From a virus, in the IMG/VR virus record IMGVR_UViG_3300042453_005424, positions 10,455-74,454 of that record: a stretch of DNA of 64,000 nucleotides; one strand, 5' to 3'. The notes under the pieces are model-generated. The model did no database searches. It worked only from the letters and a program-made list of their open reading frames with translations, and had not been told where the DNA came from. Shown in pieces: positions 1-14,200 of this stretch (position 1 is the stretch's first letter; each line of letters starts with the position of its first letter). Made by a program: the position numbers and the translations under genes.

Positions 1-613
1 TGATCAATTTAATTCTATTATTTAATATAGCTGTAGACAAATTTAATTTTTTAGATATGCCTGCATTATCTAGAATTTGTTTACCTCCGAAGCCTGTTTT
101 ATGCTCGAATATTAATTTGTCTGAGGGTGACAGGTCATGATAAACAAAATGCACCCATTCATCATTACCGCTCTCGAATAAGGCCGGTGATTCAAATAAA
201 TTAGACATAGCTGATGTAGTTTTTTTGCTGCGCAGCATATTATTGACCATTTTCATACTAAAGCCTGTATGCTCAGATAATTCTGAAACTGTTGGGTTTC
301 TTCCTAATGTATGCTCTAAATCTTTCTCGACCCGCATCAGTTTATTAATACCGAATTGTGTATTTTCCGGAAGTCTTATAACGTTACCGTATTGTGTAGA
401 TAATCTTGATAATTTTTTCAAGTTGTTAACCAAATAAGTACTAAATTTATACCCAGACGTAGGTTCGTACGAAGCTGCCGCATCTCGTGCCAGTTTATAA
501 GCCTCTATTTGAACCGTTATAAGAGGAATATTCGTTGCGTACCTCGCCGCTTCTAGCTCAATTAACTTTTTGTTTTCTTTTATAAGCTTTTCTATTTCGT
601 TTTTACTTTTCAT
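1..613 (-). CDS. Sigma-70-family RNA polymerase sigma factor (3' truncated at window edge; not in ORF track)
   Basis: Manual translation from the ATG at 613: MKSKNEIEKLIKENKKLIELEAARY...YEPTSGYKFSTYL (region 2.3-like), NVIRLPEN, LEHTLGRNPTVSELSEHTG (region 3), LSPSDKLIFEHKTG...ISKKLNLS (region 4 HTH). Open to position 2. Confidence 0.85.
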   Translation of the reverse strand, partial: MKSKNEIEKLIKENKKLIELEAARYATNIPLITVQIEAYKLARDAAASYEPTSGYKFSTYLVNNLKKLSRLSTQYGNVIRLPENTQFGINKLMRVEKDLEHTLGRNPTVSELSEHTGFSMKMVNNMLRSKKTTSAMSNLFESPALFESGNDEWVHFVYHDLSPSDKLIFEHKTGFGGKQILDNAGISKKLNLSTAILNNRIKLI

Positions 614-619
614 AGTTAA

Positions 620-2287
620 TCACCTGGTATCTCCTAAAAATCCGCTCTGAACACCACTTTCTTTTCCTTGGTTGTAACCTAAAAATTTATCAGAGGATAC
701 ACCTGCCGGGGATGACCCAATTCTACCGCACGAAAAATTTACAGTGGTCATCGCAGACCCTGTGTTGGGGCTGGACATGTCTATTCTGTGTGTCACGCCT
801 GTAACATAAAAAGCTAATGTTAGCTTTGTTTCTCTGATATAAATTGAGCCGCCTGTGCCTGGAGCCCACTGAGGATTAAAATCCATCACGATTGTTCCTG
901 TTCTATCTCCGTACCTATTCTGGTATAATTTAATTTCAGCATAGTTATTCAGAACTTCGCCCACCTTCTGCACATCACCTTTCTTTTTTTCAAACTGTTG
1001 TTTATACCCAGATTGGCTTTCGCTTTTAGCCTGGTCATATTTAAGAGGAGCTTTCATCATTGAATCGCCTGGGTTATCCAACCTAGGCTTTCCTTCTTTT
1101 GAATCAGTCACGTAAGGAGCATTAGGTGAAAAAAGCATAAATGGATTGCTTTTAACGACTAAAACTCCGGATGCCTGTGATACGTTTTTCTCGTCCATGT
1201 ATTCTCCGGAGAGACCTGTATCAAATGCCGGCCCTCCCAAGTACATACCGTCTATATGTGTGGGTTGAGCAATAACAACTGCAGCGATATCCCTATAACC
1301 ATTATCATTATAGGTATAGCTGACATAGTCTGCAGGACCCCCTTTGTTCGGAGCGCTTTGCACTTGTCCTTTACCTGGAGACCCGGAGTTTTGCTTTAAA
1401 ACCGAATTAAACGGAACAACCCAACCTTTACTATTACCAAATATTATAGAGCATCCGAGTAATTCTAAAAAGCCCATATAATTTTCAAGCAAAACATTAG
1501 AACCTTCTACAAATGCGGATTGTATAACTTTTAAAGCTGCTGGGTGTGAAGCTTTGGCTTGGGCTATGGACCCACTCTCTACAGCGCTAAGGTCTAAACT
1601 ATCTAGAATTTCTTTTGCCCTAGTCAACGCTTTTTTATACCTTGGGTCCGTTAGTACTTTCTTTAAAGCCTGAGATCCGGAAGGTAATTTTTCTTTCCCA
1701 GCAAATTGAAAAGGATTATTTAATTGTATATCAACAACTAATTTTAATAACTCTGTGTAATATTTTATTACGTTTTGAGTAAAAGGTAATTTTTGAGTCG
1801 CAGTCACATTGAACCAACTTTTAACCGCGTTAGACTCTTCGCCGGACTGCTTGAACCCTATAGCCATCGCCGGGTTTTTATAAATATTAACCGACACTGG
1901 ATGAAGCCCTGGCGTAATAGTGGTGATTTCCAATAATGTCTGAGCTTTGTTTTTTATAACTGCTTGATAAGAATTATTGCCTACAGCATTGCTTATGGAT
2001 AAACCATCCAAATATCCTACAAATTTAGCTGTGCGATTTTTCTTTCCTCCATCGCCTGTATAAATAGAAACATCCACATTAATTGTTACTTCATCTTTTC
2101 GCTTGAGCTGATCTGTGCTTGTTATAACTCCCGCGCTAAAAGTGTCTATTTTAGACCCTCCTCCGCTAGAGGAAAGCTCCACCAAAGCTGTCGGAATTGC
2201 GCCTACAGCATAATTTATAGTAACACCCACAGGTGTAATTCCACTTAACCCTGATACGTTGATTTTTACGTCAGTTTGTTTTGCCAT
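620..2287 (-). CDS. Putative baseplate hub / tail protein (gp27/gpD-like)
   Basis: Lies downstream of the tape measure gene. The C-terminal FNPQWAPG...FYVTGVTHRID pattern is typical of hub proteins. Confidence 0.5.
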   Translation of the reverse strand: MAKQTDVKINVSGLSGITPVGVTINYAVGAIPTALVELSSSGGGSKIDTFSAGVITSTDQLKRKDEVTINVDVSIYTGDGGKKNRTAKFVGYLDGLSISNAVGNNSYQAVIKNKAQTLLEITTITPGLHPVSVNIYKNPAMAIGFKQSGEESNAVKSWFNVTATQKLPFTQNVIKYYTELLKLVVDIQLNNPFQFAGKEKLPSGSQALKKVLTDPRYKKALTRAKEILDSLDLSAVESGSIAQAKASHPAALKVIQSAFVEGSNVLLENYMGFLELLGCSIIFGNSKGWVVPFNSVLKQNSGSPGKGQVQSAPNKGGPADYVSYTYNDNGYRDIAAVVIAQPTHIDGMYLGGPAFDTGLSGEYMDEKNVSQASGVLVVKSNPFMLFSPNAPYVTDSKEGKPRLDNPGDSMMKAPLKYDQAKSESQSGYKQQFEKKKGDVQKVGEVLNNYAEIKLYQNRYGDRTGTIVMDFNPQWAPGTGGSIYIRETKLTLAFYVTGVTHRIDMSSPNTGSAMTTVNFSCGRIGSSPAGVSSDKFLGYNQGKESGVQSGFLGDTR

Positions 2288-3236
2288 ATATGTCGTTTAC
2301 TTTTTCAACATAGGCTAAAAGCAGCCCTGAAAGCCTATATATATCATTGTAATGGGACGACCACAAGTTTTCATAAGTTTTAGTTGAAGAAGTACTGTTG
2401 AACTTAAACATATCTTCAACAATCCCTCGCTCATTACTTAACCGACTAATCAAGCCAGGTATGTCAAATTTCATCGAAGTTTCCGCAGTAAATAACCAAG
2501 ACTTATTCTCGCCCGATAAAAATAAGTCTAAAGGCCCTACAATATTAAACCCTATCCCGGTATCTCCTATCTTTATATGATTAGACATGTTGTCGTCATG
2601 CGCAGATTTCGAAATAGTTATAGCCATATTTGCTGGAGAGCGCGAATCAGCCTCTCCGAACTTATAATATCTCCTTTGCACAGGAGAAAAAATGGTGATG
2701 CTTGGTGTGCTGCCTTCCTGCCTTATCAAAAAACTATCGAAAAAAAGATTTGCCTCTAGCCGTTGTTTTAATTTTCCTGTTATGATTAAACTGAATTTAT
2801 TATCAGAGCTTTTCGGTATCGATATTTTTGGAATTTTAAAATAGTCGGAAGTTGCAGACAGTTCAAATAAATCATACGTAATTCTATTGTCGTATCTCAT
2901 TATTTGCGGAGTCATACCCGCCGCGTCAATAATTTTTAAATAACTAAATAAAAAAAACTGTTTATAGTAATCTGAGCATTCCTCAGGAAAAAGAATACTA
3001 TGCACATTTTTTAAAGCCGGAGGCAATTCTATAACTGTGTAATTCTTATTTAAAAATACTGAAGGTGAGCTTTCTGTTATAAGCGCTCCGCCCAATATAT
3101 TCGATATCTCTATAAAATATTCGTCTCGGGTTTGTAAAAAATGATTGTCATATCCCATTAAGAGATAATTTTGCACTGATGCTTTTATAACTGATAAACG
3201 CACATTAGTTAAAAGTGTAGCGAAGTGGTTAACCAT
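2271..3236 (-). CDS. Hypothetical virion/baseplate protein
   Basis: 321-aa ORF within the tail operon. Confidence 0.45.
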   Translation of the reverse strand: MVNHFATLLTNVRLSVIKASVQNYLLMGYDNHFLQTRDEYFIEISNILGGALITESSPSVFLNKNYTVIELPPALKNVHSILFPEECSDYYKQFFLFSYLKIIDAAGMTPQIMRYDNRITYDLFELSATSDYFKIPKISIPKSSDNKFSLIITGKLKQRLEANLFFDSFLIRQEGSTPSITIFSPVQRRYYKFGEADSRSPANMAITISKSAHDDNMSNHIKIGDTGIGFNIVGPLDLFLSGENKSWLFTAETSMKFDIPGLISRLSNERGIVEDMFKFNSTSSTKTYENLWSSHYNDIYRLSGLLLAYVEKVNDIYGKTN

Positions 3237-3241
3237 AATTA

Positions 3242-3685
3242 TTACATTGTGTGATTAACTATGGAAAAGTTGAACACAAACTGAGCCATAGTGTCTGGTT
3301 CGCTAATCACTGATATTTGTGCTGAGTTTAGTATTACTGTTAAAGTCATGCTGCCGATACTGATTGTTTGCTCTTTACCTCTTAACCCCGAAACAGCCCC
3401 AGAAAATTTATTTAGCCCCGGGATATCTCCATCACATTTGCTAAACATAATTCCGGCGACATTTACTGTTCCGAGTCCTTTACCAAAATGAATAAATTTA
3501 ATTACGTCGTCGAATGTTAAAAAATATTGAATTGTTTCACCTATCTGAACACTTACTTCGGTATAAATAGCTAATCCGGATTGTCCGACTATATTATCTA
3601 CCTGAGGTATTTTAACTAAGTGATCTGCAGAGCCACCGCTCTTAAACACATCATCTTTTTCTAAATTAAAAAATGCTGCAGCCAT
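3242..3685 (-). CDS. Putative tail tube-like / tube initiator protein
   Basis: 147-aa beta-rich ORF immediately after the tape measure gene. Confidence 0.4.
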   Translation of the reverse strand: MAAAFFNLEKDDVFKSGGSADHLVKIPQVDNIVGQSGLAIYTEVSVQIGETIQYFLTFDDVIKFIHFGKGLGTVNVAGIMFSKCDGDIPGLNKFSGAVSGLRGKEQTISIGSMTLTVILNSAQISVISEPDTMAQFVFNFSIVNHTM

Positions 3686-3690
3686 ATAAA

Positions 3691-6600
3691 TTAACTTGTT
3701 AACGCAGATGTCAAAGCTTGAAGTGCTGAGGCTATTCCTCCTCCACCTTCAAAAACTTCTTTAAACTGTTTCAATATATCTTTCATATCTCCCATACCTT
3801 TATCCTCAGGCGCTTGAGCTCCTGTCGCTTTTAATTTATCATCTATTGTACTTAAACTTCCTTGGGTCTGCGATAATATAACTCCTAGCTGCCCTCCTGC
3901 GCCATCTGAATATTTTTTTCTAACTTCTTCACTGGCAAACATACCTGAGGTTGTTGAATAGTCTGCAACCATCTTCTCCACATCTACAGACCCATCTTCT
4001 TTTTTATAGTTTTCTTTTGCCCTACCGATTAACTCGGCCGCCTCTCCTGACGCTGAGCTAGCGAACTCGTCTATACGCTTTTCCGCAGTGGTCAGTGTTT
4101 CCTCTTTAGCTTTGTCTGTTTCTGCTTTAAGTAATTGTTGCCTTCTAGACTCTATAGCCGCGGCACCTAAATTTCTTACACCTCCGTTATTCGCCATATC
4201 AAAAGCTGCTTCTGACTCAAGTAATCCCATTTTTTCAGCAGTCTCTAGGGCATTAAACATAGATTGATCTAACTCATTTAGATCTTCTCCTTTATCCACC
4301 CTAGTTCTAAAATCCTGTAAGTCTCTTTTAGCGGTTTTTACGGATCCTACGGTTTTAAGCTGTACCGCAGCATTTTCCAAGTCTTCACTACTAATTTCTC
4401 CTAATTTTTCTGCTAATTCGGTATCACCGGTCTGTCTTGCTTCTGCTATTCTGCCCTGTATAACAGCGTTCACACCTTCAGCCATTTTATCCGATATAGT
4501 GGCATCCCCACCCTCCATAGCGCTCGCAGCAGCAATTCCTTCAGCCCCTTTCAAGGATTGTTCGCGCGCTTTTTTTAGTTTTGGTGAAGTAACTCCCTCT
4601 GTAGTGAATAAACCTTCTATAGCTTGAGTTATTTCTCCTATATTTTCGCCTGAAGCTACCGCGTTAACCATTTGTGTAACCATTGGTGCATTAAGCCCGC
4701 CCAGCCTTTTTGACATATCGGCTTCAGTTTTAGCTTGTGTGTCGATCAAATTTTTAACACGAGTTTTTTGCTCTTCTGTCATAGTAGACATGTAGAGATC
4801 TTGCATAACAGAAGATCTAGCCATATTCGCAAACCTCTGCGAATCTTCTGTCATAGGCATATTTGTTAAAAGTTCCGAGTCGAAAAAAGTTCCTGCGCTT
4901 ATTCCTTTAGCTTGAGCTTCCTTAAATTTTTGTTTTATTTCTTCCTCGCTAATTCCCATCATTTCCATCCCCTCATAAAATGAGCGGGTCATAGTCCCTT
5001 TTGCTCCTCGTCGCAAACTCGAACTTATGTCTTCATCAGCCAAAGCTCTTTGCTGTAAATCTGCTCGCGACATATTTGCTACAACAAGAGAAGTATCCAT
5101 ACCTAATTTTTCTGATACATTCGCTAAAAAATTAGGATCAGCATAATCTTGTGGAGTAAATTCTCCTGAAGAAAATTGCTGCTTTAATTCTTCATATAAC
5201 TCTGGGCTTTTTCCTTTGGCCATTTGCAACAATGCTGCAAGCCCTCCTGTATAGCCGGATTGGAGATATTCTTGCTCAGAAGTTATTTCTTTTGCAGCTA
5301 TGCCTTGCGATCCTCCAGCTTTACGATAATCTTCTGGACTCATAACTGCCCCCATTGTAGCAGCTGTTTCTATAGCCTTAACGGACATTTCTGTTACAGT
5401 AGAAGAGCTTAGGTATTGCAGCTGAGGATTATTTCTAGCCAATTCTTTAGCAGAATCGATTATACCGAACATCGCTTCTAAACTAACCCCAGCCACTCTA
5501 GCTGTGGCTTTTGCTTTGCGTAAAATATCTTCTATTCCCTGAGCATCTTTTCCGGCGTCATTCGAAGATAACTTATTACCTAGCTTAGCGGTTTCTTCAC
5601 CTAGTCTAGGATCAGGCTCTGAGGAGGGGCCTGAAGCACCTACCTTTGGAGCTTCTCCTGGTTCTGTAGGCAACACACTCGATTCTCGAGAAGATAAATC
5701 GTAAGTTGCAGTCCCTACAAAATCGTTTATTCTTTCGACTAACTGTGCTCCAGATAAATCATTGCCGAATAAAGATCTGGCTGCGTCCAAAGCTCCCCCA
5801 GCATTTTTAGAGAAGTCAGCCATAGCCGCTGCTGGAGAAGAACCTCTCCTGTCTCCCAGTAATCTCAATTCAGCGGCTTTGTTAAACGCAGATGTAAAAT
5901 CTTCCAACTTAAACCCTCTAGAATTTTCAAAATTAAATCCCTTAAAACGCCCTTTTCCTTCTCGGTAAGCTTCTCCCTCCATTGTCAATCTCTCTATAGG
6001 ATCAAGCTCAGCTGTTTTTTCTAAAAGATCTCTTACTTTTTCCGTATTTAATTGACCGTCTTTATTTTTTAATTTTTTAAGCTGCTCTTCTGTGGCTACA
6101 TTGTATTTTTTAAGCTGCTCTTCTAATCGCTCATTATACTCTTTTTTAACCGATTCATCGCTCTCGTCGATTAATTTTTCTACATCCACATCAAGCATAT
6201 TAACTACCTGACGTTTTCTACGTATTCTATCTTTTACATTACGTGTAATTTCTGTATCAGCTCCTCCCTCAGGGCTTGTAATATCTATCTTCTCAAGCTG
6301 CTCCATTCCTTTTTCGGTGAGCTTTCCTTCGTCGTCCAAGTCCAACTCAATACCTAAGTCTTTAAGATAATTAATGCCAGTTTCTCCCTCTTCCAATCTG
6401 TCTGTTATAAATTTCCGTGTTTTGTCTTGCACATACTTTCTAGCCCCAGGGGTTCCATCAGGCGCTGTTTCGTACTGTTGCTCCGCATAAAAATTTTTGG
6501 CTAAAGACTGCATTACGGCTTCTGTTTCTTCGGGTGTTATCGCACCAATCCTTCCAAAATTCCCCATAATATCTGCCCCAGCCAATCCGGCGTAAGTCTG

Positions 6601-6954
6601 CATTTGCGCAGCCATGGGATTTCCTCCTAAAAGAGGACTCATAGCTCTGGCCAATAACCCGTCCGGAGAACCCATGAAACGCCCGGCCAGCCCGGTAAGA
6701 GGATTTTCACTTATTCCTAACGACTTAGAAATCTGGTTATTCATGAACCCTGAGCGCTGTAAGTTCATAAATTGAGCAGAACGTTCTCGTTGAATAAATG
6801 CGTCATACACGCTTTGCCCGCTATCTGGGCGAGGAGTATAACCGGCCCCATACAAACCCTGCATCATCAAGTTCATCACTGGATTACCATAGTTCCTCCC
6901 GAATGGGGAATATGCCGCGTAATCTTCGTAAGGGCTAAATGTATTCACATTCAT
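3691..6954 (-). CDS. Tape measure protein
   Basis: 1087 aa, helical and Ala/Gly/Glu-rich. Directly follows the chaperone pair carrying the slippery site. Confidence 0.7.
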   Translation of the reverse strand: MNVNTFSPYEDYAAYSPFGRNYGNPVMNLMMQGLYGAGYTPRPDSGQSVYDAFIQRERSAQFMNLQRSGFMNNQISKSLGISENPLTGLAGRFMGSPDGLLARAMSPLLGGNPMAAQMQTYAGLAGADIMGNFGRIGAITPEETEAVMQSLAKNFYAEQQYETAPDGTPGARKYVQDKTRKFITDRLEEGETGINYLKDLGIELDLDDEGKLTEKGMEQLEKIDITSPEGGADTEITRNVKDRIRRKRQVVNMLDVDVEKLIDESDESVKKEYNERLEEQLKKYNVATEEQLKKLKNKDGQLNTEKVRDLLEKTAELDPIERLTMEGEAYREGKGRFKGFNFENSRGFKLEDFTSAFNKAAELRLLGDRRGSSPAAAMADFSKNAGGALDAARSLFGNDLSGAQLVERINDFVGTATYDLSSRESSVLPTEPGEAPKVGASGPSSEPDPRLGEETAKLGNKLSSNDAGKDAQGIEDILRKAKATARVAGVSLEAMFGIIDSAKELARNNPQLQYLSSSTVTEMSVKAIETAATMGAVMSPEDYRKAGGSQGIAAKEITSEQEYLQSGYTGGLAALLQMAKGKSPELYEELKQQFSSGEFTPQDYADPNFLANVSEKLGMDTSLVVANMSRADLQQRALADEDISSSLRRGAKGTMTRSFYEGMEMMGISEEEIKQKFKEAQAKGISAGTFFDSELLTNMPMTEDSQRFANMARSSVMQDLYMSTMTEEQKTRVKNLIDTQAKTEADMSKRLGGLNAPMVTQMVNAVASGENIGEITQAIEGLFTTEGVTSPKLKKAREQSLKGAEGIAAASAMEGGDATISDKMAEGVNAVIQGRIAEARQTGDTELAEKLGEISSEDLENAAVQLKTVGSVKTAKRDLQDFRTRVDKGEDLNELDQSMFNALETAEKMGLLESEAAFDMANNGGVRNLGAAAIESRRQQLLKAETDKAKEETLTTAEKRIDEFASSASGEAAELIGRAKENYKKEDGSVDVEKMVADYSTTSGMFASEEVRKKYSDGAGGQLGVILSQTQGSLSTIDDKLKATGAQAPEDKGMGDMKDILKQFKEVFEGGGGIASALQALTSALTS

Positions 6955-6974
6955 TGTTTATCTGTATCTTAACA

Positions 6975-7331
6975 CTATTTTTTATTTATATTACTTAGAA
7001 AAAGTTTCCATTCAGCTAAATCTTCTTTACTCAATTGTTTCTTTTCTTGCTTTATTTTATCTTTTGCTACTATAGAAGGCAATTTTAAAGCTATCAGCAT
7101 TTTATTTAATTCAAAAATAGGCTCGAACAGCTCTTTGGAGCGTTTGTCTGAAGTAGCTCTAAGCGTAGACTCAATGAATAGTTTTTCTTTAAGTAATTCA
7201 AACATCCTATCATTTTGAAGTTTATGCAAAATAATCTCTTCTCTCAACCGAGAAGTACGCTGAGGATATTTAAAGTTCAGCCAGCCCCTAAGATAGCCTT
7301 CTATAAGGCAACTTACGCGCTGGCTTTCCAA
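6975..7331 (-). CDS. Tail assembly chaperone, -1 frame extension (gpT-like)
   Basis: Its TTG 'start' coincides with the end of the slippery heptamer in the upstream gene. Precedes the tape measure gene. Confidence 0.65.
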   Translation of the reverse strand: MESQRVSCLIEGYLRGWLNFKYPQRTSRLREEIILHKLQNDRMFELLKEKLFIESTLRATSDKRSKELFEPIFELNKMLIALKLPSIVAKDKIKQEKKQLSKEDLAEWKLFLSNINKK

Positions 7332-7828
7332 AAATTTACAGTTTGTACCTCATTTGTAAGTTTTATTATTTTAGCCTCAAACTTTTGGAAAGCATCCAAA
7401 AAAAGTGACAACTTATAAGTGGGCCATGATTTAAAAGACTTAGCTCTTGCTACAATATAGCTGTCGTTATCCCCTACTGTTAAATACGTATCTTTGTTAA
7501 TATCAGAATATACCTTTTCGTCTACAGACACTAACGCTAAGCCTAATCTGTATGTTGCAATTGTAATGAAATAAGCATCATTATCCATAGCTACACCAGC
7601 CTTTTTATCTGCAACTATCTGATTAACAACATCTGTGTTTTCTTGGACGGTCAATGACCTGAATCTAACTTTTAATTGACCATCAAAAAGAGGTATTGCC
7701 TCCTCGTAAGATCTGTCGGATAAAACACTTTTTAAAAAATTTTCTTTATCTTGCTCAGTAATATCTATTCTAGCTGGTTTTTCTGTACTCATATCTATAG
7801 AAGGATTGAATGATGGTTGGTTATTCAT
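7313..7828 (-). CDS. Tail assembly chaperone (gpG-like)
   Basis: 171 aa with LKVRFRSLT, in the canonical position before the tape measure gene, and with a slippery site at its 3' end. Confidence 0.65.
   Translation of the reverse strand: MNNQPSFNPSIDMSTEKPARIDITEQDKENFLKSVLSDRSYEEAIPLFDGQLKVRFRSLTVQENTDVVNQIVADKKAGVAMDNDAYFITIATYRLGLALVSVDEKVYSDINKDTYLTVGDNDSYIVARAKSFKSWPTYKLSLFLDAFQKFEAKIIKLTNEVQTVNFWKASA
7331..7337 (-). other. Programmed -1 ribosomal frameshift heptamer A-AAU-UUU
   Basis: The minus strand reads GTA AAT TTT TGG in frame (X XXY YYZ). A -1 shift enters the LESQRVSC frame of 6975..7331. Confidence 0.7.
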
Positions 7829-7836
7829 TATTTTAA

Positions 7837-10185
7837 TTATTTTGATTTTTGTACTTTGTATTGTTTCAAGGAGGATAGCGTTATATTACCTGGAGATGGT
7901 TCAGATTCAGCTTTATTGCTATAATCTTTACCTAAAGGATTAGATTCCAAATTTTTAGGTTTTTCACCTTTAAAATAAAACTGCTCAAATTTTTCTTTTC
8001 CTGGGTATGGTAGGCTGCCATTGACTTCCTCTTCCTGCCAAGGTTGTAACGAGTATAAGCTTGAAGCTAAGTCTTCTTGCTGCGCCATAGTCATAGGTAT
8101 AGCATCTTCTTGGTCACTTAACTGCCCGTATTGGTCGGATTTTAAAAACTTAAACTTCAGTTTTTCGACTTTTGATTCGTCTGTAAATATCGTCATTTTT
8201 AAAGGCTCTTTTTTAAATTCTTTTAGACTATCCAACATACCTTTAAACATCTCGGTAGGTATAACACCTTTAAGAATATCTATAAAAGGACTATCTGTAT
8301 CGTACATAACACCCAAGTTATCGTCTTTTTGACCAATATTAGTTCCAGATGAGCCGGCGACATTAACACTCTGACCAGCTATTAAGTTTAAACTTTTTGG
8401 TGTGTATATAATCAAAGATTCGTCGGTTATAAAATTTAATCGTTTATCTGGGTAGAATGTAATATCTTTTTTGCAGCGGAGGTCGATATCTTTCATACTC
8501 TCGAATAAAATTTTATCTTTTGAGTGATTCAAGATTACTTTTTCTGCGAAATTATAAATACCTAATTTAGATTTAAGGATTATTCCACCTACTTTTTCAA
8601 TCGCCATCGTTTCAGGGTCTGGCGTTCCTGGAGTATTCGAAGTACCTTCTGTTTGGAAAACAATTCCACCGTCTTTACTATAATAATAATGCGCATTTTT
8701 AGATTTGACTCTAAACCCTCCTTTTGTTGAAGAAAAATCGATGTCCCATTGCGAGGCTATGCTTACAAATCCGCCAGCTTTAACCACATTGTGTCTTAAA
8801 GGCTGGGATATCAAATCTTTAGCTGGCTGTAGATAAATATTTCCGCCTTCCATCACAATAGCAGAACTCCAGGCATCGCGAATTGCGATACCTCCGTTAG
8901 GCATAAGATATATCCCGGCAGTTCTAAGTTGGTATTCTTGAAGATCTAATTTTGTTTCTTTATCTATCGGACCGAATTCAGAAATTTTATTTTCTTTCCC
9001 GATAGAATCATTCACATAAAAATCTTTTTCATGCTTTTTAAAATTTTGATAATTAAGTTTTTCATTCACATATGCCACATAATCCCTAATTTGTAGCGCA
9101 TATAAAAAAGGATTTCCTTTAAACTTGTGATCGTTTTTGAACTCAAATTTTTCTTTTTCTTCGTACTCTAACGTGCGGGCGTCGTCTCCTTTTTTATCCT
9201 CAGGAAAAGCTATGCGATGAGGAACACGAATCCATTGCGTTTTTTCGATAAATACTTCTTTAACGCTGCGAAAATGCATTCCGCCGTCCGCACCTAAGTG
9301 AATGTCGCATAGTCCGGTATCAGGCGTACCTGGAGGCTTTAAATCGTTTTTACGTGTTTCTTGAGGGTCCGGGCGGACCACAAACAAGTGAAAAAAATCG
9401 CCTACACTACCTAAAAAAACTTTAAAGCGCTCAACAGCTTTTATACGCTCATCCTCGGTAATCTTATAAAAATCTTTTTCATCGTCGGTAGTATGTGAGC
9501 CTTCTTTAGAAAAAGTTGGAGGTGTGGCATCCGAGTTTACACAGGGTTTTCCATATAATTCGCCTGTTTTATGTGTAGCTCCAAACTCACACATTAAGCG
9601 TTTTCCGTCGTGCCATATATTGTATTCTCCGAGAGCAGTATAATGCTGAAAATTATGGCTTATAATCCTCACCATATCATCTAATAAAAAACATTGTATT
9701 TGCGCTAATTCTGATGCCTTTAAATGAGCCATTTGCTGGTACAACCCGAGCAATACTCCGAATTCATTACCTAGCACATATTCTCCATCAACTACATCAG
9801 TTGATCTTCTATTATCGTTAATAGACTGGGTGTGCTCCACATGACCCATACGATTAGCTTGGTCATCTAATGTATTTTTTTGGCCTAGCGTTGCTCTAGA
9901 TGGAAGAGAATCTACTTTGAGATTGTTTTGAGGTATGCCTCCAAGAATATAACATGTAGTCCCTGTGTTTGGTACACATAGAACTCTAGCTCCGGGTTGC
10001 GGAAGGTTAGAGTCTTTGAATCCGAAAAACGCGGCCATTGAGCTACTAATTAAAATTCCTTGCATCATATTTCCAGCATGCGGGGTATCTGACGAGGCGT
10101 ATCCCTCAGGAGCGACTATAACTGTGTTCGATCCTGCGTTAGAAGTAATTACAACTGCAGTAAATAATGTAGGTGAAGAATTCAT
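7837..10185 (-). CDS. Putative baseplate spike/hub protein (gp5/VgrG-like)
   Basis: N-terminal OB-fold-like LPQPGARVLC...YILG, then beta-helix-like repeats. Tail operon context. Confidence 0.55.
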   Translation of the reverse strand: MNSSPTLFTAVVITSNAGSNTVIVAPEGYASSDTPHAGNMMQGILISSSMAAFFGFKDSNLPQPGARVLCVPNTGTTCYILGGIPQNNLKVDSLPSRATLGQKNTLDDQANRMGHVEHTQSINDNRRSTDVVDGEYVLGNEFGVLLGLYQQMAHLKASELAQIQCFLLDDMVRIISHNFQHYTALGEYNIWHDGKRLMCEFGATHKTGELYGKPCVNSDATPPTFSKEGSHTTDDEKDFYKITEDERIKAVERFKVFLGSVGDFFHLFVVRPDPQETRKNDLKPPGTPDTGLCDIHLGADGGMHFRSVKEVFIEKTQWIRVPHRIAFPEDKKGDDARTLEYEEKEKFEFKNDHKFKGNPFLYALQIRDYVAYVNEKLNYQNFKKHEKDFYVNDSIGKENKISEFGPIDKETKLDLQEYQLRTAGIYLMPNGGIAIRDAWSSAIVMEGGNIYLQPAKDLISQPLRHNVVKAGGFVSIASQWDIDFSSTKGGFRVKSKNAHYYYSKDGGIVFQTEGTSNTPGTPDPETMAIEKVGGIILKSKLGIYNFAEKVILNHSKDKILFESMKDIDLRCKKDITFYPDKRLNFITDESLIIYTPKSLNLIAGQSVNVAGSSGTNIGQKDDNLGVMYDTDSPFIDILKGVIPTEMFKGMLDSLKEFKKEPLKMTIFTDESKVEKLKFKFLKSDQYGQLSDQEDAIPMTMAQQEDLASSLYSLQPWQEEEVNGSLPYPGKEKFEQFYFKGEKPKNLESNPLGKDYSNKAESEPSPGNITLSSLKQYKVQKSK

Positions 10186-10203
10186 TGTTTTTTTTTAGTA
10201 TAT

Positions 10204-10244
10204 AAAAAAACCTCAGCCCTTAATATATAGGACTGAGGTTTTTT
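10204..10244 (-). terminator. Rho-independent terminator after tail tube gene (possibly bidirectional)
   Basis: AAAAACCTCAG-CCT...AGG-CTGAGGTTTTT stem flanked by A/T tracts. Confidence 0.8.
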
Positions 10245-10268
10245 ATCAAGAAAATATACTGAAATATA

Positions 10269-10697
10269 TTATGCAGATAACTGAAGGAACTCGATGGTTA
10301 CATTATCCATAACAGTCAAGCCTTCTGCTTCTGCTTGTACTTGGAATTGTGTTACTATACAACCTGTAGCGGTGAGTGTTGTAGAAGCTCCGCCGCCGCA
10401 GCCGCCAGCCATAGCAAATGTGAGAGTTCCCGGCTCGCACGCTTTCCATCCAGGGCTACTGAACAGCTCGCTAGAATTTGTCGTAAGCAATCTAGCTATA
10501 GTTATTTGCCCGACAGGCATAGTGGCCCATATGGCTGCGACTCTATTTCCAATAGTACGTCTGCGATTTATTTGCTGCGCGTAGTTAATACTGATCTGGA
10601 CAGCTCCTGTTACAATTCCACCCCAGTTAATGGTGCATTTATCTGCTGTGATTGGTGTTGCGATGTCTTGATCTTTATATCCAAATAGGTCGGCCAT
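10269..10697 (-). CDS. Tail tube protein
   Basis: 142 aa, beta-rich, just downstream of the sheath gene, with its own promoter and terminator. Confidence 0.7.
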   Translation of the reverse strand: MADLFGYKDQDIATPITADKCTINWGGIVTGAVQISINYAQQINRRRTIGNRVAAIWATMPVGQITIARLLTTNSSELFSSPGWKACEPGTLTFAMAGGCGGGASTTLTATGCIVTQFQVQAEAEGLTVMDNVTIEFLQLSA

Positions 10698-10726
10698 ATA
10701 TTTATTCTAGTTAAGGTTATGTATAT

Positions 10727-10755
10727 AGTTTATGAAATTTTCTCTACCCTTGCAA
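10727..10755 (-). promoter_or_regulatory. Sigma70-like promoter TTGCAA-N17-TAAACT (tail tube)
   Basis: Read directly in the intergenic region. Confidence 0.6.
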
Positions 10756-10772
10756 GTTTATTTGTTGTTTAT

Positions 10773-10973
10773 TTAAAGTAATCCTAACGATTTTGCTATT
10801 TCATCAAAGCTAGCGTCTTCGCCTTTAGTATACCTTATCCAGCCTTGTCCTTCTCCAACTATTCTATATATTGTATTAGGCTTTCCGTCAGGAGAAAAAA
10901 TTAAAACCCCTGTAGCTTTATCAGTATTTAATAATGCAGGTTCTCTAAAATCTCCAGTTACTATAACTTTCAT
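10773..10973 (-). CDS. Hypothetical protein
   Basis: 66-aa ORF, TAATG-coupled to the upstream gene. Confidence 0.6.
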   Translation of the reverse strand: MKVIVTGDFREPALLNTDKATGVLIFSPDGKPNTIYRIVGEGQGWIRYTKGEDASFDEIAKSLGLL

Positions 10974-11209
10974 TATAATCGAATTTTTTTCTTTGCTGCT
11001 CTCATTCTGTCATCTATAATTTCATGTTTTAACATATTGGCTAAAATACCTACAGTAGTCGGGTCGTTTGTTTTTTCTGTAGGGAAAGTTTCGAATAACT
11101 TTCCAGCCTCGGAATGCTCCATGGCTCTTTTATATATATGGGCTGTCTGTTCGGTAGACAGCCCATATTCATTAGCGTAAGTTATGAACCCGGCTTCGAA
11201 AGCGGTCAT
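10973..11209 (-). CDS. Small putative head protein with FxxGF...KxA module
   Basis: MTAFEAGFITYANEYGLSTEQTAHIYKRA. AGGAGA Shine-Dalgarno. Confidence 0.6.
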   Translation of the reverse strand: MTAFEAGFITYANEYGLSTEQTAHIYKRAMEHSEAGKLFETFPTEKTNDPTTVGILANMLKHEIIDDRMRAAKKKIRL

Positions 11210-11222
11210 ACTTTATGTCTCC

Positions 11223-14200
11223 TTAGACGATAAGCTTGAGGTTGATGTAGTTCATCGGGTAAGGAACATTCAGTCTAACCTCTACATCAATTCTATCTTT
11301 ATAGGTAGCATTTTGCTCAAGTCTTAAAATGTCATCTTTTGGAACAAAACTGACCAACTGGTTACCTGCTCTATATGTCCAGGTATTTGTCGCTCTAAAA
11401 TTAAGCTGAGAGACAATAGCGGCGCGCACAACAACCAAGTTTTCTGGGTTGATGTTGAATCTGCCGATAAAAGGCTCAAGTGTAGCCTTCAGAGCATAAC
11501 TGATCGAGTCTACGTTGGTAGTGATTGAATCTTCTGAAGTATTCAAACTACGTTCATCAGTCGTCAACTGGTGGCGAACATAAGGCGTAGCCCCGACCAC
11601 TTCTTGCGTGATCAGCCATATACCTTGCTCAGCCATCACGTTCAGCTCATCTTGAGTAAATTCAAGAACAACTTTGGATAAATCATCAGCTCCGAGATAT
11701 TCTGTGTTAGTTAACCCTTGATGGGGCACAACACCAGACCTAAGCCCTGCAAGCCCTGCGGCTGCAAAATAACCCTGCTTGACGACGTTTCCGTACTTAA
11801 ATGTGTCAGGGAAAACACAACGCACACGACGGTTATTGTATTCACCTCCGATAAGAGCAACATTATTGGCTCTTTCGGACCTTGTGTACATTCTAACTAT
11901 TTGAACTTTGGTTAATGTACCTATCGCAGCCGGGAGCGGCTTGGTGATAGTGAATGATGTTTGTGTGCGAACTGTATCGATAACAAATTCGTCATAAATC
12001 ATCTTACCGTCAGGATTTAATCTAAAGTTCATGCGAAGACGATCGTTCGGGCGAATTCCGTCTTCTATGAAGGTTGCGTCGGGCACAGAAACAAGCTTGT
12101 ATTGTATTCCTCCAACTGCGGGGTCATCTCCTACAGTAGCTTGATACGGAGAACCATCTTCTTTCAAGTCATAAAGAACTTTAGAAGCCTCGTCTTTTAC
12201 AGAAAGCCATGCAATTCTCCAGCGGCCTACCTCCGGAGTACTGTAGGCATTAACGTGCGAAACAACAGCGTCCTGGATAGGTCTATCGAATGTCATAGGA
12301 ACAAAGCTATAAACTTTGTTGCTTTTTTCAGAGATCTTGATTGCCTTAGTGTAGCCGTTCAGGTCATTCGACTCAACACCGATAAAGTAAACCAGCATGT
12401 TGCTCGCATTCAAAACAGCGTCGTATACACCCTGGGCAAGCGGGTTGTCTGGGTGTACTGTGCCAAGCTTTGTGGTAACTTCTGCAAGGCTGCGAACCGA
12501 GTCGATAGCGTTTACATTATCTTGTAACAAATCTCGGTGCTCTACAAATAAGCTGGCTTTTGCTACAGGTAACCGAACCGGCGTACCAGCGTCTGTAAGC
12601 CTGTTATCATAGCTGGTAATTCCTCCGTTAATCGTTATATAGTTGTTATCAAGAACCCAGTTGGATGTCATCGTGACTAGATCTCGTGTAGCTGGAATCT
12701 GGATAGATTTCTGTACCACGAAAAGCTTGACTGTGTGCGACGTAGCGATAGACACCATCGCGTCAGGCATATCAGCAGAAAAGTCTACAACTCTTACACG
12801 ACCCAGCTTTTCAGCCGTAACAGGAATGTAGTATGTGTCACCTGCGATTAAACCCCCGTTGTTAGACCCTGCAGCGAATTTACCGGTTACACCAAAACTT
12901 CCAACATTGAATGCAGTGTTAAGCTGCGGGAGAACCGCAGAAGAAGTATCGATATCTGACGCAGTAATAACAATTCTTGCACATGTTTCAAAATTACCTG
13001 CCACAGGATCATAAAAAGCTCCACCTCTTTCGACTGTGAGCTTATAATACATATCAGAAGGCCCTGTGTAGCCTCTAAGAGGATCAGCAGCAGCAGCTAC
13101 AGGGTTAACCTGGGTAACTGCAGCTGTAACCTCAAGAGTCCACTTTGTACCTAAAGTAAAATTAGTGGTTCCTGTGAAATCTAACTTTACATTATTCAGG
13201 TTAAAATTATCTATGATAAGTTCGTCCGCCGCGTCGAGAGAAAGGTTGGTTCTTTCGATAAAAGCAAGGCTTTCGGACGAAACATTGAACCTTGCGTCAG
13301 CCAAATTTCCGCCAACTATAACTTCAATAGTATACTTGTCTGCTAAAATATTTCTACTGTTATAGCCTACATAAGCTGTAGAGGAGTTAGCCACAGTGAC
13401 ACCAGTAACGCTTCCTGTTCCTGGAACAAGCACAGGCGCGGCGCTAAAGCTTGCGGCCTGAGCAGCTGTATTATTAGCGTCATTGTATACCCCCTCAACA
13501 AAATAAGGGAGAGTTGTTCCTGTAGCTACACTCGCGTTCAAAACAATGGCAGTATTGCTCAGACGAGCTAAAATTTTACGCACACCTCGCCCGCCGATAG
13601 TGATAAATTTTCCAACCATAGCCTCAGTGAATACCGCTGAAGCTGATGTAAATGTAGTTGACCCGTTGGCTACACCATCGTTACCAGCCTCAAGTTCTCT
13701 ACCGATTGTGGATGCCAGCGAAGCATCTTCTTTAGCTGTGTCTGCTCGAAGCGCTGTGATTTTACCCCGCACTGTGTTGCCGAGGTTATCGGTAACTTCT
13801 ATGATATCGTTTAAAGAAACATCGCGACCACTAAAATAATTGGACCTGCTGTACCCATTGGCTGTTTTGAGCACCGCACTAGTAAAACGAATTTTATTTG
13901 TGTATTTCTGCCCTGTAGGTCCGCTTAAAAGAGCCACATCATCTGCGTGAGTGGCGTTAGACCCTAAATCAGGATTAGGAAAATATTGAGCTTCAACAGC
14001 TTCAGCATAAACTTTTGTATAATCCGGGTCCACAAGACCTCCTGCAGGAACATTAGGCACGTCGTAAGTTGTATCTACGTCAGGAAGATAACTATTTCCT
14101 GTAGCTAAATACGCACCATTATATGTTTTTGGTGCAGTGAAAGGCTTTTCTGAAGCTTCACTATAACGAGTTAATGAAAACTGAGGCCCAAGAATAAACG

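Follow-up and report, generated by a model that had tools for sequence, protein, structure and literature searches.

A phage that encodes both a sigma factor and an RNA polymerase raises the question of which core its sigma serves, that of the host or its own. We address this question for a 64,000-nucleotide (nt) stretch of viral DNA (the window; bases 10455-74454 of the 74,454-bp IMG/VR virus record IMGVR_UViG_3300042453_005424, which is rated 38% complete), where a sigma-70-family gene lies at the left edge (1..613, minus strand) and the genes of a bacterial-type polymerase lie further to the right. The sigma gene is a new member of a known family, and it is a conserved core gene in a phage lineage of roughly 165-215 kb whose members include Salmonella phage Arash, the Vibrio phages D69, D148 and D181, and many uncultured freshwater contigs. 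We favour the reading, at a probability of roughly 0.55, that the protein acts as specificity subunit for the phage's own polymerase, being produced late, packaged and then injected.

A three-domain sigma factor without the tryptophan dyad

The sigma open reading frame (ORF) is cut by the left edge of the window, which holds 204 of its codons (2-613). Extending the contig leftward, as the initial annotation had proposed, completes the ORF at 213 amino acids (aa; L002:10426-11067, minus strand), with the last nine codons and the stop reaching 29 nt left of the window. The product is a genuine three-domain sigma-70-family protein, comprising domains 2, 3 and 4 and lacking region 1.1, and the regions 2, 3 and 4 that had been claimed for it are present. 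Domain 2 (374..613; residues ~1-80, regions 1.2/2.1-2.4) was placed by sequence alignments, model helices and column counts, domain 3 (194..367; residues ~83-140, region 3.0-3.2) by a Pfam match and invariant columns, and domain 4 (2..166; residues ~150-213), which contains the region 4.2 helix-turn-helix and is cut by the window edge, by a profile alignment and the model helices 150-212; all three are on the minus strand. About eight residues precede the point at which the alignment to region 1.2/2.1 begins, and the protein has neither a region 1.1 nor a long N-terminus.

Searches with the Pfam models Sigma70_r2, r3 and r4, which had been suggested as a check, bore out the third region alone. 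Sigma70_r3 (PF04539) matches residues 89-136 above its cut-off (35.3 bits vs 25.3, E 1.3e-8), and Sigma70_r2 has no match even at E up to 10, nor do the r4 models match the protein itself. A sigma profile is also matched in PHROG 351, 'RNA polymerase sigma factor' (E 2.5e-12 over residues 3-208). NCBIfam models of RpoD, SigB, RpoS and SigBFG match residues 5-136 (E 1e-13 to 1e-9), all 25 NCBIfam matches listed lying far under the family cut-offs (best score TIGR02997, 50.9 bits vs 384.5). Among sequences of the Protein Data Bank (PDB), phmmer finds SigB, SigA, RpoD and RpoS over residues 8-135 (E 2e-9 to 1e-6), and within domain 2 residues 8-80 align to these four proteins, the KFSTY motif included.

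A family alignment (A2) was made of 65 sequences with 25-85% identity to the phage sigma, drawn from a word-index search (311 matches) and an exhaustive search (4381 matches at E ≤0.001, 635 at ≤1e-10). The A2 profile aligns to SigB, RpoS, SigA and RpoD from region 1.2/2.1 through the end of region 4.2 (E 8e-21 to 1e-16), and for domain 4 it reaches the chain end in region 4 of SigB and RpoS. Scanned one by one with Pfam, 64 of the 65 members match r3, 15 match r4 and seven match r4_2; Sigma70_r2 matches just three of them at E ≤0.01. Region 2 of the phage sigma is thus real but divergent. The AlphaFold2 model computed on A2 (mean pLDDT 86.4) consists of three helix blocks (4-76, 83-140 and 150-212) with a low-confidence linker at residues 141-147, and all 50 PDB matches listed by Foldseek are sigma factors or sigma-containing entries, at probability 1.00 and over 209-240 aligned columns.

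The close family spans 210-216 aa, and its 32 homologues have a mean column identity of 76%, with invariant residues throughout regions 2.2-2.4, 3.0 and 4. The family hidden Markov model (HMM) matches exactly one protein in the record of interest and one in G006, a complete relative (204,454 bp, with terminal repeats) that is collinear with it, and Sigma70_r3 is matched exactly once per genome in five genomes. The description of the gene as hidden was mistaken: homologues are already labelled as sigma subunits by the Joint Genome Institute, and Arash gp10 carries a sigma factor annotation.

In the phmmer alignments to PDB sequences, bacterial FSTYATWWIRQ stands opposite FSTYLVNNLKK. The motif KFSTYLVNNL (419-448, minus strand, in domain 2) carries Asn-Asn in place of the tryptophan (Trp) dyad, just as had been read from the sequence at first. 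The loss is a trait of the whole family: Trp is found at neither dyad column in any of the 65 A2 members, 40 of which have Asn at the first, and in the 32 close homologues N63 is invariant and followed by Asn, Ser or, once, His. Group 3 and group 4 alternative sigmas commonly lack the dyad. Its absence is therefore not remarkable by itself and marks the phage sigma as non-primary, not as odd.

Further departures from the bacterial consensus are found along the chain. Region 2.2 reads Q-I-E-A-Y where aligned bacterial sigmas carry QEGN (family pattern [EQK][ASIL]EA[KY]). The bacterial PVH..E of region 3.0 is replaced by PEN.QF, with P82, E83, N84 and Q86 invariant in the close family, and the recognition helix of region 4.2 contains STAILNN where SigB of Mycobacterium tuberculosis contains SRERVRQ. 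Family-invariant residues are located in the DNA-facing helices of regions 2.4, 3.0 and 4.2 (N63, L65, K66, K67, R70, P82, E83, N84, Q86, S193 and R200). Being conserved yet different from those of bacteria, these residues suggest a conserved yet different promoter. One could instead suppose that the protein no longer takes part in initiation and is, for example, a decoy titrating host core or an anti-sigma target, or else a virion component that uses the sigma fold for purely structural ends. The loss of the dyad, the replacement of the residues that read the -35 element in aligned primary sigmas, and the lack of a match to the Pfam r2 and r4 models would suit such a role. We consider it highly improbable, because all three domains fold confidently in the model and because the invariant residues of the DNA-facing helices argue for a conserved DNA-reading role.

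The phage RNA polymerase and its sigma-docking surfaces

The phage has a minimal bacterial-type RNA polymerase, with beta and beta' encoded in four genes. The largest product, of 996 aa (35432..38422, minus strand), joins the C-terminal half of beta and the N-terminal part of beta' in one chain (Pfam Rpb2_6, then Rpb1_1 and Rpb1_2) and is matched by residues 482-1517 of Arash gp206 (1525 aa). The C-terminal part of beta' is a separate protein of 619 aa (32013..33872, minus strand; Pfam Rpb1_5, E 3e-15; Arash gp216, E 1e-59). The first N-terminal piece of beta has 221 aa (46593..47258, plus strand; residues 36-222 of Arash gp206, E 8e-15; no Pfam match) and the second 230 aa (53798..54490, minus strand; Pfam Rpb2_3, E 1e-5; gp206 residues 231-469, E 8e-24). 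The four core chains amount to about 2066 aa. The enzyme is far closer to bacterial beta and beta' (phmmer E about 1e-39) than the phiKZ type is. Neither alpha (PF01193) nor omega (PF01192) was found in any of the five near-complete relatives, in a scan whose controls matched in 14 of 14 genomes, which means that the phage enzyme is no mere copy of that of the host.

The split of the polymerase differs from that of bacterial and phiKZ-type enzymes, in that beta is divided into three pieces and the N-terminal part of beta' is attached to the last of them. In Arash (1525 aa) and in the distant relative G022 (1483-aa ORF), that part of beta' is apparently attached to an undivided beta. Some fused-polymerase homologues (P0342, P0355, P0332, P0377 and P0350) are 1296-1500 aa long; two of these carry LAGLIDADG or intein Pfam domains (PF14528, PF14890), which suggests that inteins have inserted in a phage polymerase gene. 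Bacterial beta' has zinc-binding cysteines between the GLFD and NHI.L motifs. At residues ~575-605 of the fused protein (window ~36600-36700, minus strand) the spacing between these motifs is only ~15 residues and the consensus, judged by eye, has no cysteine, so that the zinc-binding domain may be missing from the phage beta'.

Sigma and polymerase occur together. Arash, D69, D181 and D148 are the nearest cultured phages, and none is close: their sigma matches are 26-31% identical, and their fused polymerase genes are 31-32% identical over 94-98% of the length. Sigma is likewise matched in all four cultured phages whose match covers ≥94% of the fused polymerase gene. Among 19 IMG/VR records with sigma, the fused polymerase has a strong match in 12 and a weak one (E 7e-4) in one; the six with no match are 18-66% complete, and the gene is present in all five sigma records that are at least 90% complete. 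In G022 (165 kb, terminal repeats), sigma is 36% identical to the family member P0127 and an Rpb2_6 match lies inside the 1483-aa ORF. Nine longest-contig sizes are common to the sigma and polymerase match lists, as expected if the same contigs carry both genes. The distant family member P0125, used as query, gave two 30-residue matches, of which the one in a 98%-complete 59.6-kb record without polymerase was not counted as a family member; P0130, also used as query, led to no related locus. The 'moraphage' lineage (PMC12619734) is a different one, without polymerase. As to habitat, ten public runs contain at least half of the words sampled from window positions 1-8000, all of them labelled freshwater or lake-water metagenome; seven of these may be the source sample, and none listed is an RNA run.

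The co-occurrence bears on an alternative in which sigma redirects the host polymerase core to phage promoters, while the phage polymerase uses another factor or none. The nearest solved relatives of the phage sigma, SigB, SigA, RpoD and RpoS, are all bacterial, which is what such a role would lead one to expect. Against it, all near-complete relatives examined have sigma alongside the phage polymerase, as do relatives with only ~30% identity, and region 2.2 of sigma is off the bacterial core-binding consensus. We regard host redirection as the chief competing explanation, with little better than one chance in four.

The polymerase retains the two surfaces on which a sigma would be expected to dock, as the initial annotation had noted. 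A flap-tip-like helix, KSLDIQLGKLSKVIR (37586-37630, minus strand, inside the fused 996-aa gene), is aligned in PDB sequences to the bacterial beta segment GETELTAEERLLRAIF, which we take to be the flap tip. In the same gene, the motif SADINELYKDL (36281-36313, minus strand) is aligned to TSDLNDLYRRV of the clamp helices of Bacillus subtilis beta', within the wider B. subtilis segment TSDLNDLYRRVINRNNRLK. Across 30 fused-polymerase homologues with 52-100% identity, P261, L271, G272 and L274 of the flap tip and R693, P694, N708, L710, Y711 and N718 of the clamp helices are invariant. The phage clamp stretch reads LYKDLMLVNKSLK where B. subtilis carries LYRRVINRNNRLK, so that sigma region 2.2 and the clamp helices are both off the bacterial consensus. 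The altered positions are presumably contact residues, and the pattern fits co-adaptation of the two partners. We hypothesize that sigma domain 2 would dock on the retained clamp helices and domain 4 on the retained flap-tip helix, and that domains 2 and 3 would read a -10-type element.

Modelling sigma with the phage core, another check suggested at the outset, was done with sigma residues 1-82 and beta' residues 575-996, each given as an alignment. The median ipSAE was 0.47 (runs 0.37, 0.50 and 0.47), a score in the band where, by the tool's own description, a prediction is wrong more often than not unless the pairing was already likely, and the best of three controls reached 0.00. The runs agreed in at least 94% of contacts, with a partner pLDDT of at least 72. 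In the calibration, 116 of 157 solved complexes and two of 215 mismatched pairs reached the mark; at ipSAE ≤0.60 there were just 18 of the 157 solved complexes, together with both passing mismatches. Sigma-beta' complexes have already been solved, and the pass may therefore reflect memory instead of this particular pair. The prediction lends weak support to binding. On all the evidence, sigma probably binds the phage core.

The virion-gene block, proposed packaging and a second sigma-like gene

The sigma gene is translationally coupled to its neighbours and lies inside a virion-gene block. A Shine-Dalgarno-like AGGTGA (620..625, minus strand), read from the sequence 8 nt ahead of the sigma ATG, overlaps the stop of the upstream 555-aa gene, and on the other side a 139-aa ORF (L002:10010-10429, minus strand, left of the window) starts at 10429, overlapping the last four bases of the sigma ORF (end 10426). 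The gene had been placed at the end of a tail operon. Eight co-oriented ORFs (139-838 aa) follow it as far as the record end, however, and sigma is therefore in the middle of a long gene block. In Arash, gp10 (234 aa; family HMM E 2e-58; blastp 31% identity to the phage sigma over 121 aa) has the structural hydrolase gp8/gp9 on one side and the structural proteins gp12-17 on the other, and gp12, gp13, gp14 and gp15 match, in order, the four ORFs past the 139-aa ORF (E 1e-4, 3e-11, 1e-9 and 2e-3). From its coupled position within such a block, the protein would be made late, packaged and injected.

The 139-aa ORF itself is 51% identical in G006 and has no PHROG match, no family match and no usable Atlas match. 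Its place in Arash is occupied by the small gene gp11, whose product was detected in virions (PMC10585845). The position would suit a sigma-associated or anti-sigma protein.

Evidence on packaging comes from the virion proteome of Arash. In particles purified on sucrose gradients and analysed by mass spectrometry, beta gp206 gave the highest number of spectra of any protein (3516), beta' gp216 gave 1210, and sigma gp10 was detected with 100% coverage, 24 unique peptides and 467 spectra (PMC10585845). In the available text of that paper gp10 is listed in the virion proteome without being analysed, and early transcription is offered as one possibility for the virion polymerase (PMC10585845). We consider packaging of sigma in this particular phage an even bet. 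If it occurs, sigma would be made late together with the polymerase and packaged in the particle, and the injected holoenzyme would start early transcription in the next cell.

Alternatively, sigma may serve the phage polymerase unpackaged, as a middle or late factor, with an extracytoplasmic-function (ECF)-type sigma or the host enzyme covering the other temporal classes. The co-occurrence and the docking surfaces fit this arrangement as well as they fit a packaged sigma, the Arash list may include carry-over (PMC10585845), and two sigma-like genes are present in four of the five near-complete relatives as in Arash (gp10 and gp196). Against it stand the full coverage and 467 spectra of gp10, compared with gp196, which is not seen in the covered portions of Table 2 (PMC10585845), and a position of sigma inside the structural block that is conserved from Arash to the clade studied here. 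We give it little weight. The second Arash sigma, gp196 (345 aa), falls outside the family HMM and has no homologue in the record of interest or in G006.

The second sigma-like gene of the relatives falls in a genome portion not covered by this record. In G006 it is a 194-aa ORF (L026:13629-14213, plus strand) that matches Sigma70_r4_2 above the cut-off (27.7 bits vs 25.7), the ECF family model NF058625 at E 3e-15, and the sigma70-ECF model TIGR02937 over its full length at E 2e-9, under the cut-off. TIGR02937 is matched over its cut-off in G011 (70.6 bits; G011:C1:62644-63123) and G003 (58.3 bits; G003:C1:140177-140767) and under it in G006 (36.7 bits) and G022 (35.1 bits; G022:C1:159714-160106); in G017 it matches the three-domain sigma only, and no ECF-type gene was found there. 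Used as a protein query, the ECF-type gene is 29% identical between G006 and G003 and has no match elsewhere. Two sigma-like genes are thus typical of the lineage: the one in the virion block is conserved, whereas the ECF-type gene, located among non-structural genes, evolves fast. The initial annotation had described a self-contained five-gene holoenzyme. The count of four polymerase genes plus sigma stands, and 'self-contained' is too strong, because an ECF-type sigma is present in four of the five near-complete relatives. Weak NCBIfam Shiga toxin rows for the neighbour of the G006 ECF-type gene (E 0.094, 12 bits vs cut-offs of 650-725) were dismissed as noise.

Promoter-like motifs, known systems and the choice of core

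In upstream regions of G006, TATAATA occurs in 11 of 65 (1.0 expected) and GGTATAAT in four (0.2 expected). Extension of the enriched words gives the promoter-like 16-mer TGGTATAATATATTGA, which at up to three mismatches has ten intergenic sites in G006, all on the plus strand (38876, 48649, 50706, 51106, 53392, 92778, 96781, 98504, 191269 and 191780), and two more, with three mismatches, within ORFs on the minus strand. At up to two mismatches there are seven sites in G003 and eight in G011, all forward, with none in the reversed-pattern control, and three in G017, all reverse, with one in the control; Arash and G022 have none. The intergenic sites of G006 are located outside the structural block, mostly ahead of small ORFs without assigned function, and this placement is what early promoters would look like. 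A run of C residues lies ~25-35 nt upstream of five sites, four in G006 and one in the window.

The single window copy of TGGTATAATATATTGA (62962..62977, minus strand, two mismatches) has this C-run ahead of it and, after it, a small ORF for a hydrophobic product and a T-run hairpin. Counted within the window only, the motif does not exceed chance, with three matches at up to three mismatches vs 1.11 expected, a number that eight of 100 shuffles reached. The compact unit at 62700-62977 (minus strand) comprises the motif, an ORF of ~56 codons for a very hydrophobic peptide, and a GC hairpin plus T-run; the ORF call of 87 aa that starts at 63034 is probably too long. The unit lies just upstream of the gene for a PhoH-like ATPase (61916-62692, minus strand). 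Other accessory genes of the window encode a SET-domain protein (59845-60246, plus strand), a family-25 glycosyltransferase (61252-61953, plus strand), a ribonucleotide reductase (55905-57791, plus strand) and a DUF6745 protein (63216-63866, minus strand).

The best consensus-like site, a candidate TTGATA-16-TATATT with 10 of 12 positions (10222..10249, minus strand), is located in an 83-nt gap that heads the close-packed minus-strand gene run containing sigma. Over window positions 1-11500, a scan for consensus sigma-70 promoters found 28 sites vs 32.2 expected, with no enrichment, and a terminator scan found 8 vs 7.8 expected. Searches for -35/-10 patterns showed no enrichment in either genome scanned, and k-mer enrichment in 25 upstream regions of the window was weak. 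Upstream of a 729-aa gene (29750-31939), the near-palindrome CTTGATATACAAG (~31987-31999, minus strand) stands ~12 nt ahead of an AT-rich -10-like hexamer and is retained at the orthologous position in G006. It could serve as an operator or as part of a late promoter.

Several points weigh against a packaged specificity subunit of the phage polymerase. To our knowledge, the characterised phage sigmas SPO1 gp28 and gp34 and T4 gp55 all act on host core. The clade motif TGGTATAAT... resembles a host-type extended -10 element; it holds the canonical TGnTATAAT, which a host primary sigma could read. The ECF-type gene found in four of the five near-complete relatives could be the partner of the polymerase instead of, or as well as, the three-domain sigma, and the band into which the complex score falls counts on the same side. 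Detection in virions is known for Arash only, not for the close clade of this phage. The Arash list is permissive, because its 116 proteins include several metabolic enzymes (ribonucleotide reductases, RNA ligases and a deoxynucleoside monophosphate kinase), and its authors name carry-over of abundant proteins as a second possibility (PMC10585845). Reviews, in their available text, describe phage multisubunit polymerases as lacking sigma homologues and assign phage sigmas to a role on host core (PMC7598289, PMC7824862, PMC13282480).

The last point, the motif and the possibility that the ECF-type gene is the phage polymerase's own factor all agree with redirection of the host core. Two further observations speak against that alternative: sigma lies in the virion, or late, block, where a host-switching factor would be expected to be expressed earlier, and sigma and polymerase were both detected in Arash virions (PMC10585845). 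The proposal that sigma is the specificity subunit of the phage's own polymerase, made in the initial annotation, remains the best reading, carried by the co-occurrence and the Arash virion detection, with the complex prediction adding weakly. We further speculate, at somewhat less than even odds, that five polypeptides, with neither alpha nor omega, form a minimal sigma-70 holoenzyme that is packaged in virions, injected, and begins infection from extended -10-type promoters of its own (TGGTATAATATATTGA, some with the C-run), and that the fast-evolving ECF-type sigma later switches the same core to later genes, which would make a full sigma cascade on a viral core.

Arash gp10 ('RNA polymerase sigma factor RpoS', OQ632216) belongs to the same family, has the same place in the virion gene order and accompanies the same kind of fused beta/beta' polymerase. 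It differs in length (234 vs 213 aa), in sequence (only ~30% identity) and in its polymerase, where the whole of beta and the N-terminal part of beta' form one protein, whereas beta is in three pieces in this phage. Bacterial group 1 and 2 sigmas (RpoD/SigA, RpoS and M. tuberculosis SigB) are the best sequence and fold matches, and the KFSTY core is kept; unlike them, the phage sigma has no region 1.1, has Asn-Asn for the Trp dyad and is changed in regions 2.2, 3.0 and 4.2. Group 3 sigmas (SigF/SigB/FliA type) are of similar size and likewise consist of three domains with no region 1.1. SigF (1l0o_C) aligns in full length to the family profile (E 1e-15), and the group 3 model TIGR02980 SigBFG matches at E 3e-9 but with 36.8 bits vs a cut-off of 234. 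The phage sigma differs from group 3 in being a phage-borne lineage that pairs with a phage polymerase.

Among phage systems, SPO1 gp28 and gp33/34 and T4 gp55 are sigma-70 members or relatives that time phage transcription, as reviews also describe in the portions available. Unlike this phage, SPO1 and T4 have no polymerase genes, and the genes for their sigmas are early or middle ones outside the virion block. The fifth subunits of jumbo-phage non-virion polymerases, phiKZ gp68 and AR9 gp226, have the same proposed job, promoter specificity (PMC7824862, PMC13282480). According to the available text of the reviews they have no recognisable sequence similarity to sigma, whereas the protein described here is an ordinary sigma-70 homologue. 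AR9 promoters contain uracil and are read on the template strand. Of the 60 PDB sequences matching the phage sigma at E ≤1, none is a phage polymerase subunit, in a set that we take to include gp68 and gp226 chains.

The available text of the reviews draws a dichotomy, in which phages with a multisubunit polymerase have no sigma homologue and sigma-bearing jumbo phages have no polymerase (PMC7598289, 2020; PMC7824862, 2021; PMC13282480, 2026). The lineage that carries sigma together with its own polymerase is an exception to it. The exception is already visible in the annotation and proteome table of Arash and is undiscussed in the available portions of the Arash paper (PMC10585845). Our literature search, whose coverage left out most subscription journals, found no paper analysing the pairing of a sigma with a phage polymerase, and the arrangement, in which a sigma and a viral core are probably packaged together, is a new variation on a known type. 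Because cultured relatives exist (Arash and the Vibrio phages D69, D148 and D181), the idea can be put to a direct test. Should the pairing prove functional, it would offer structural biology and biochemistry a sigma-dependent holoenzyme of bacterial type and very small size, would bear on whether phage polymerases are ancient or were captured from cells, and would add a new way in which infection can start independently of host transcription.

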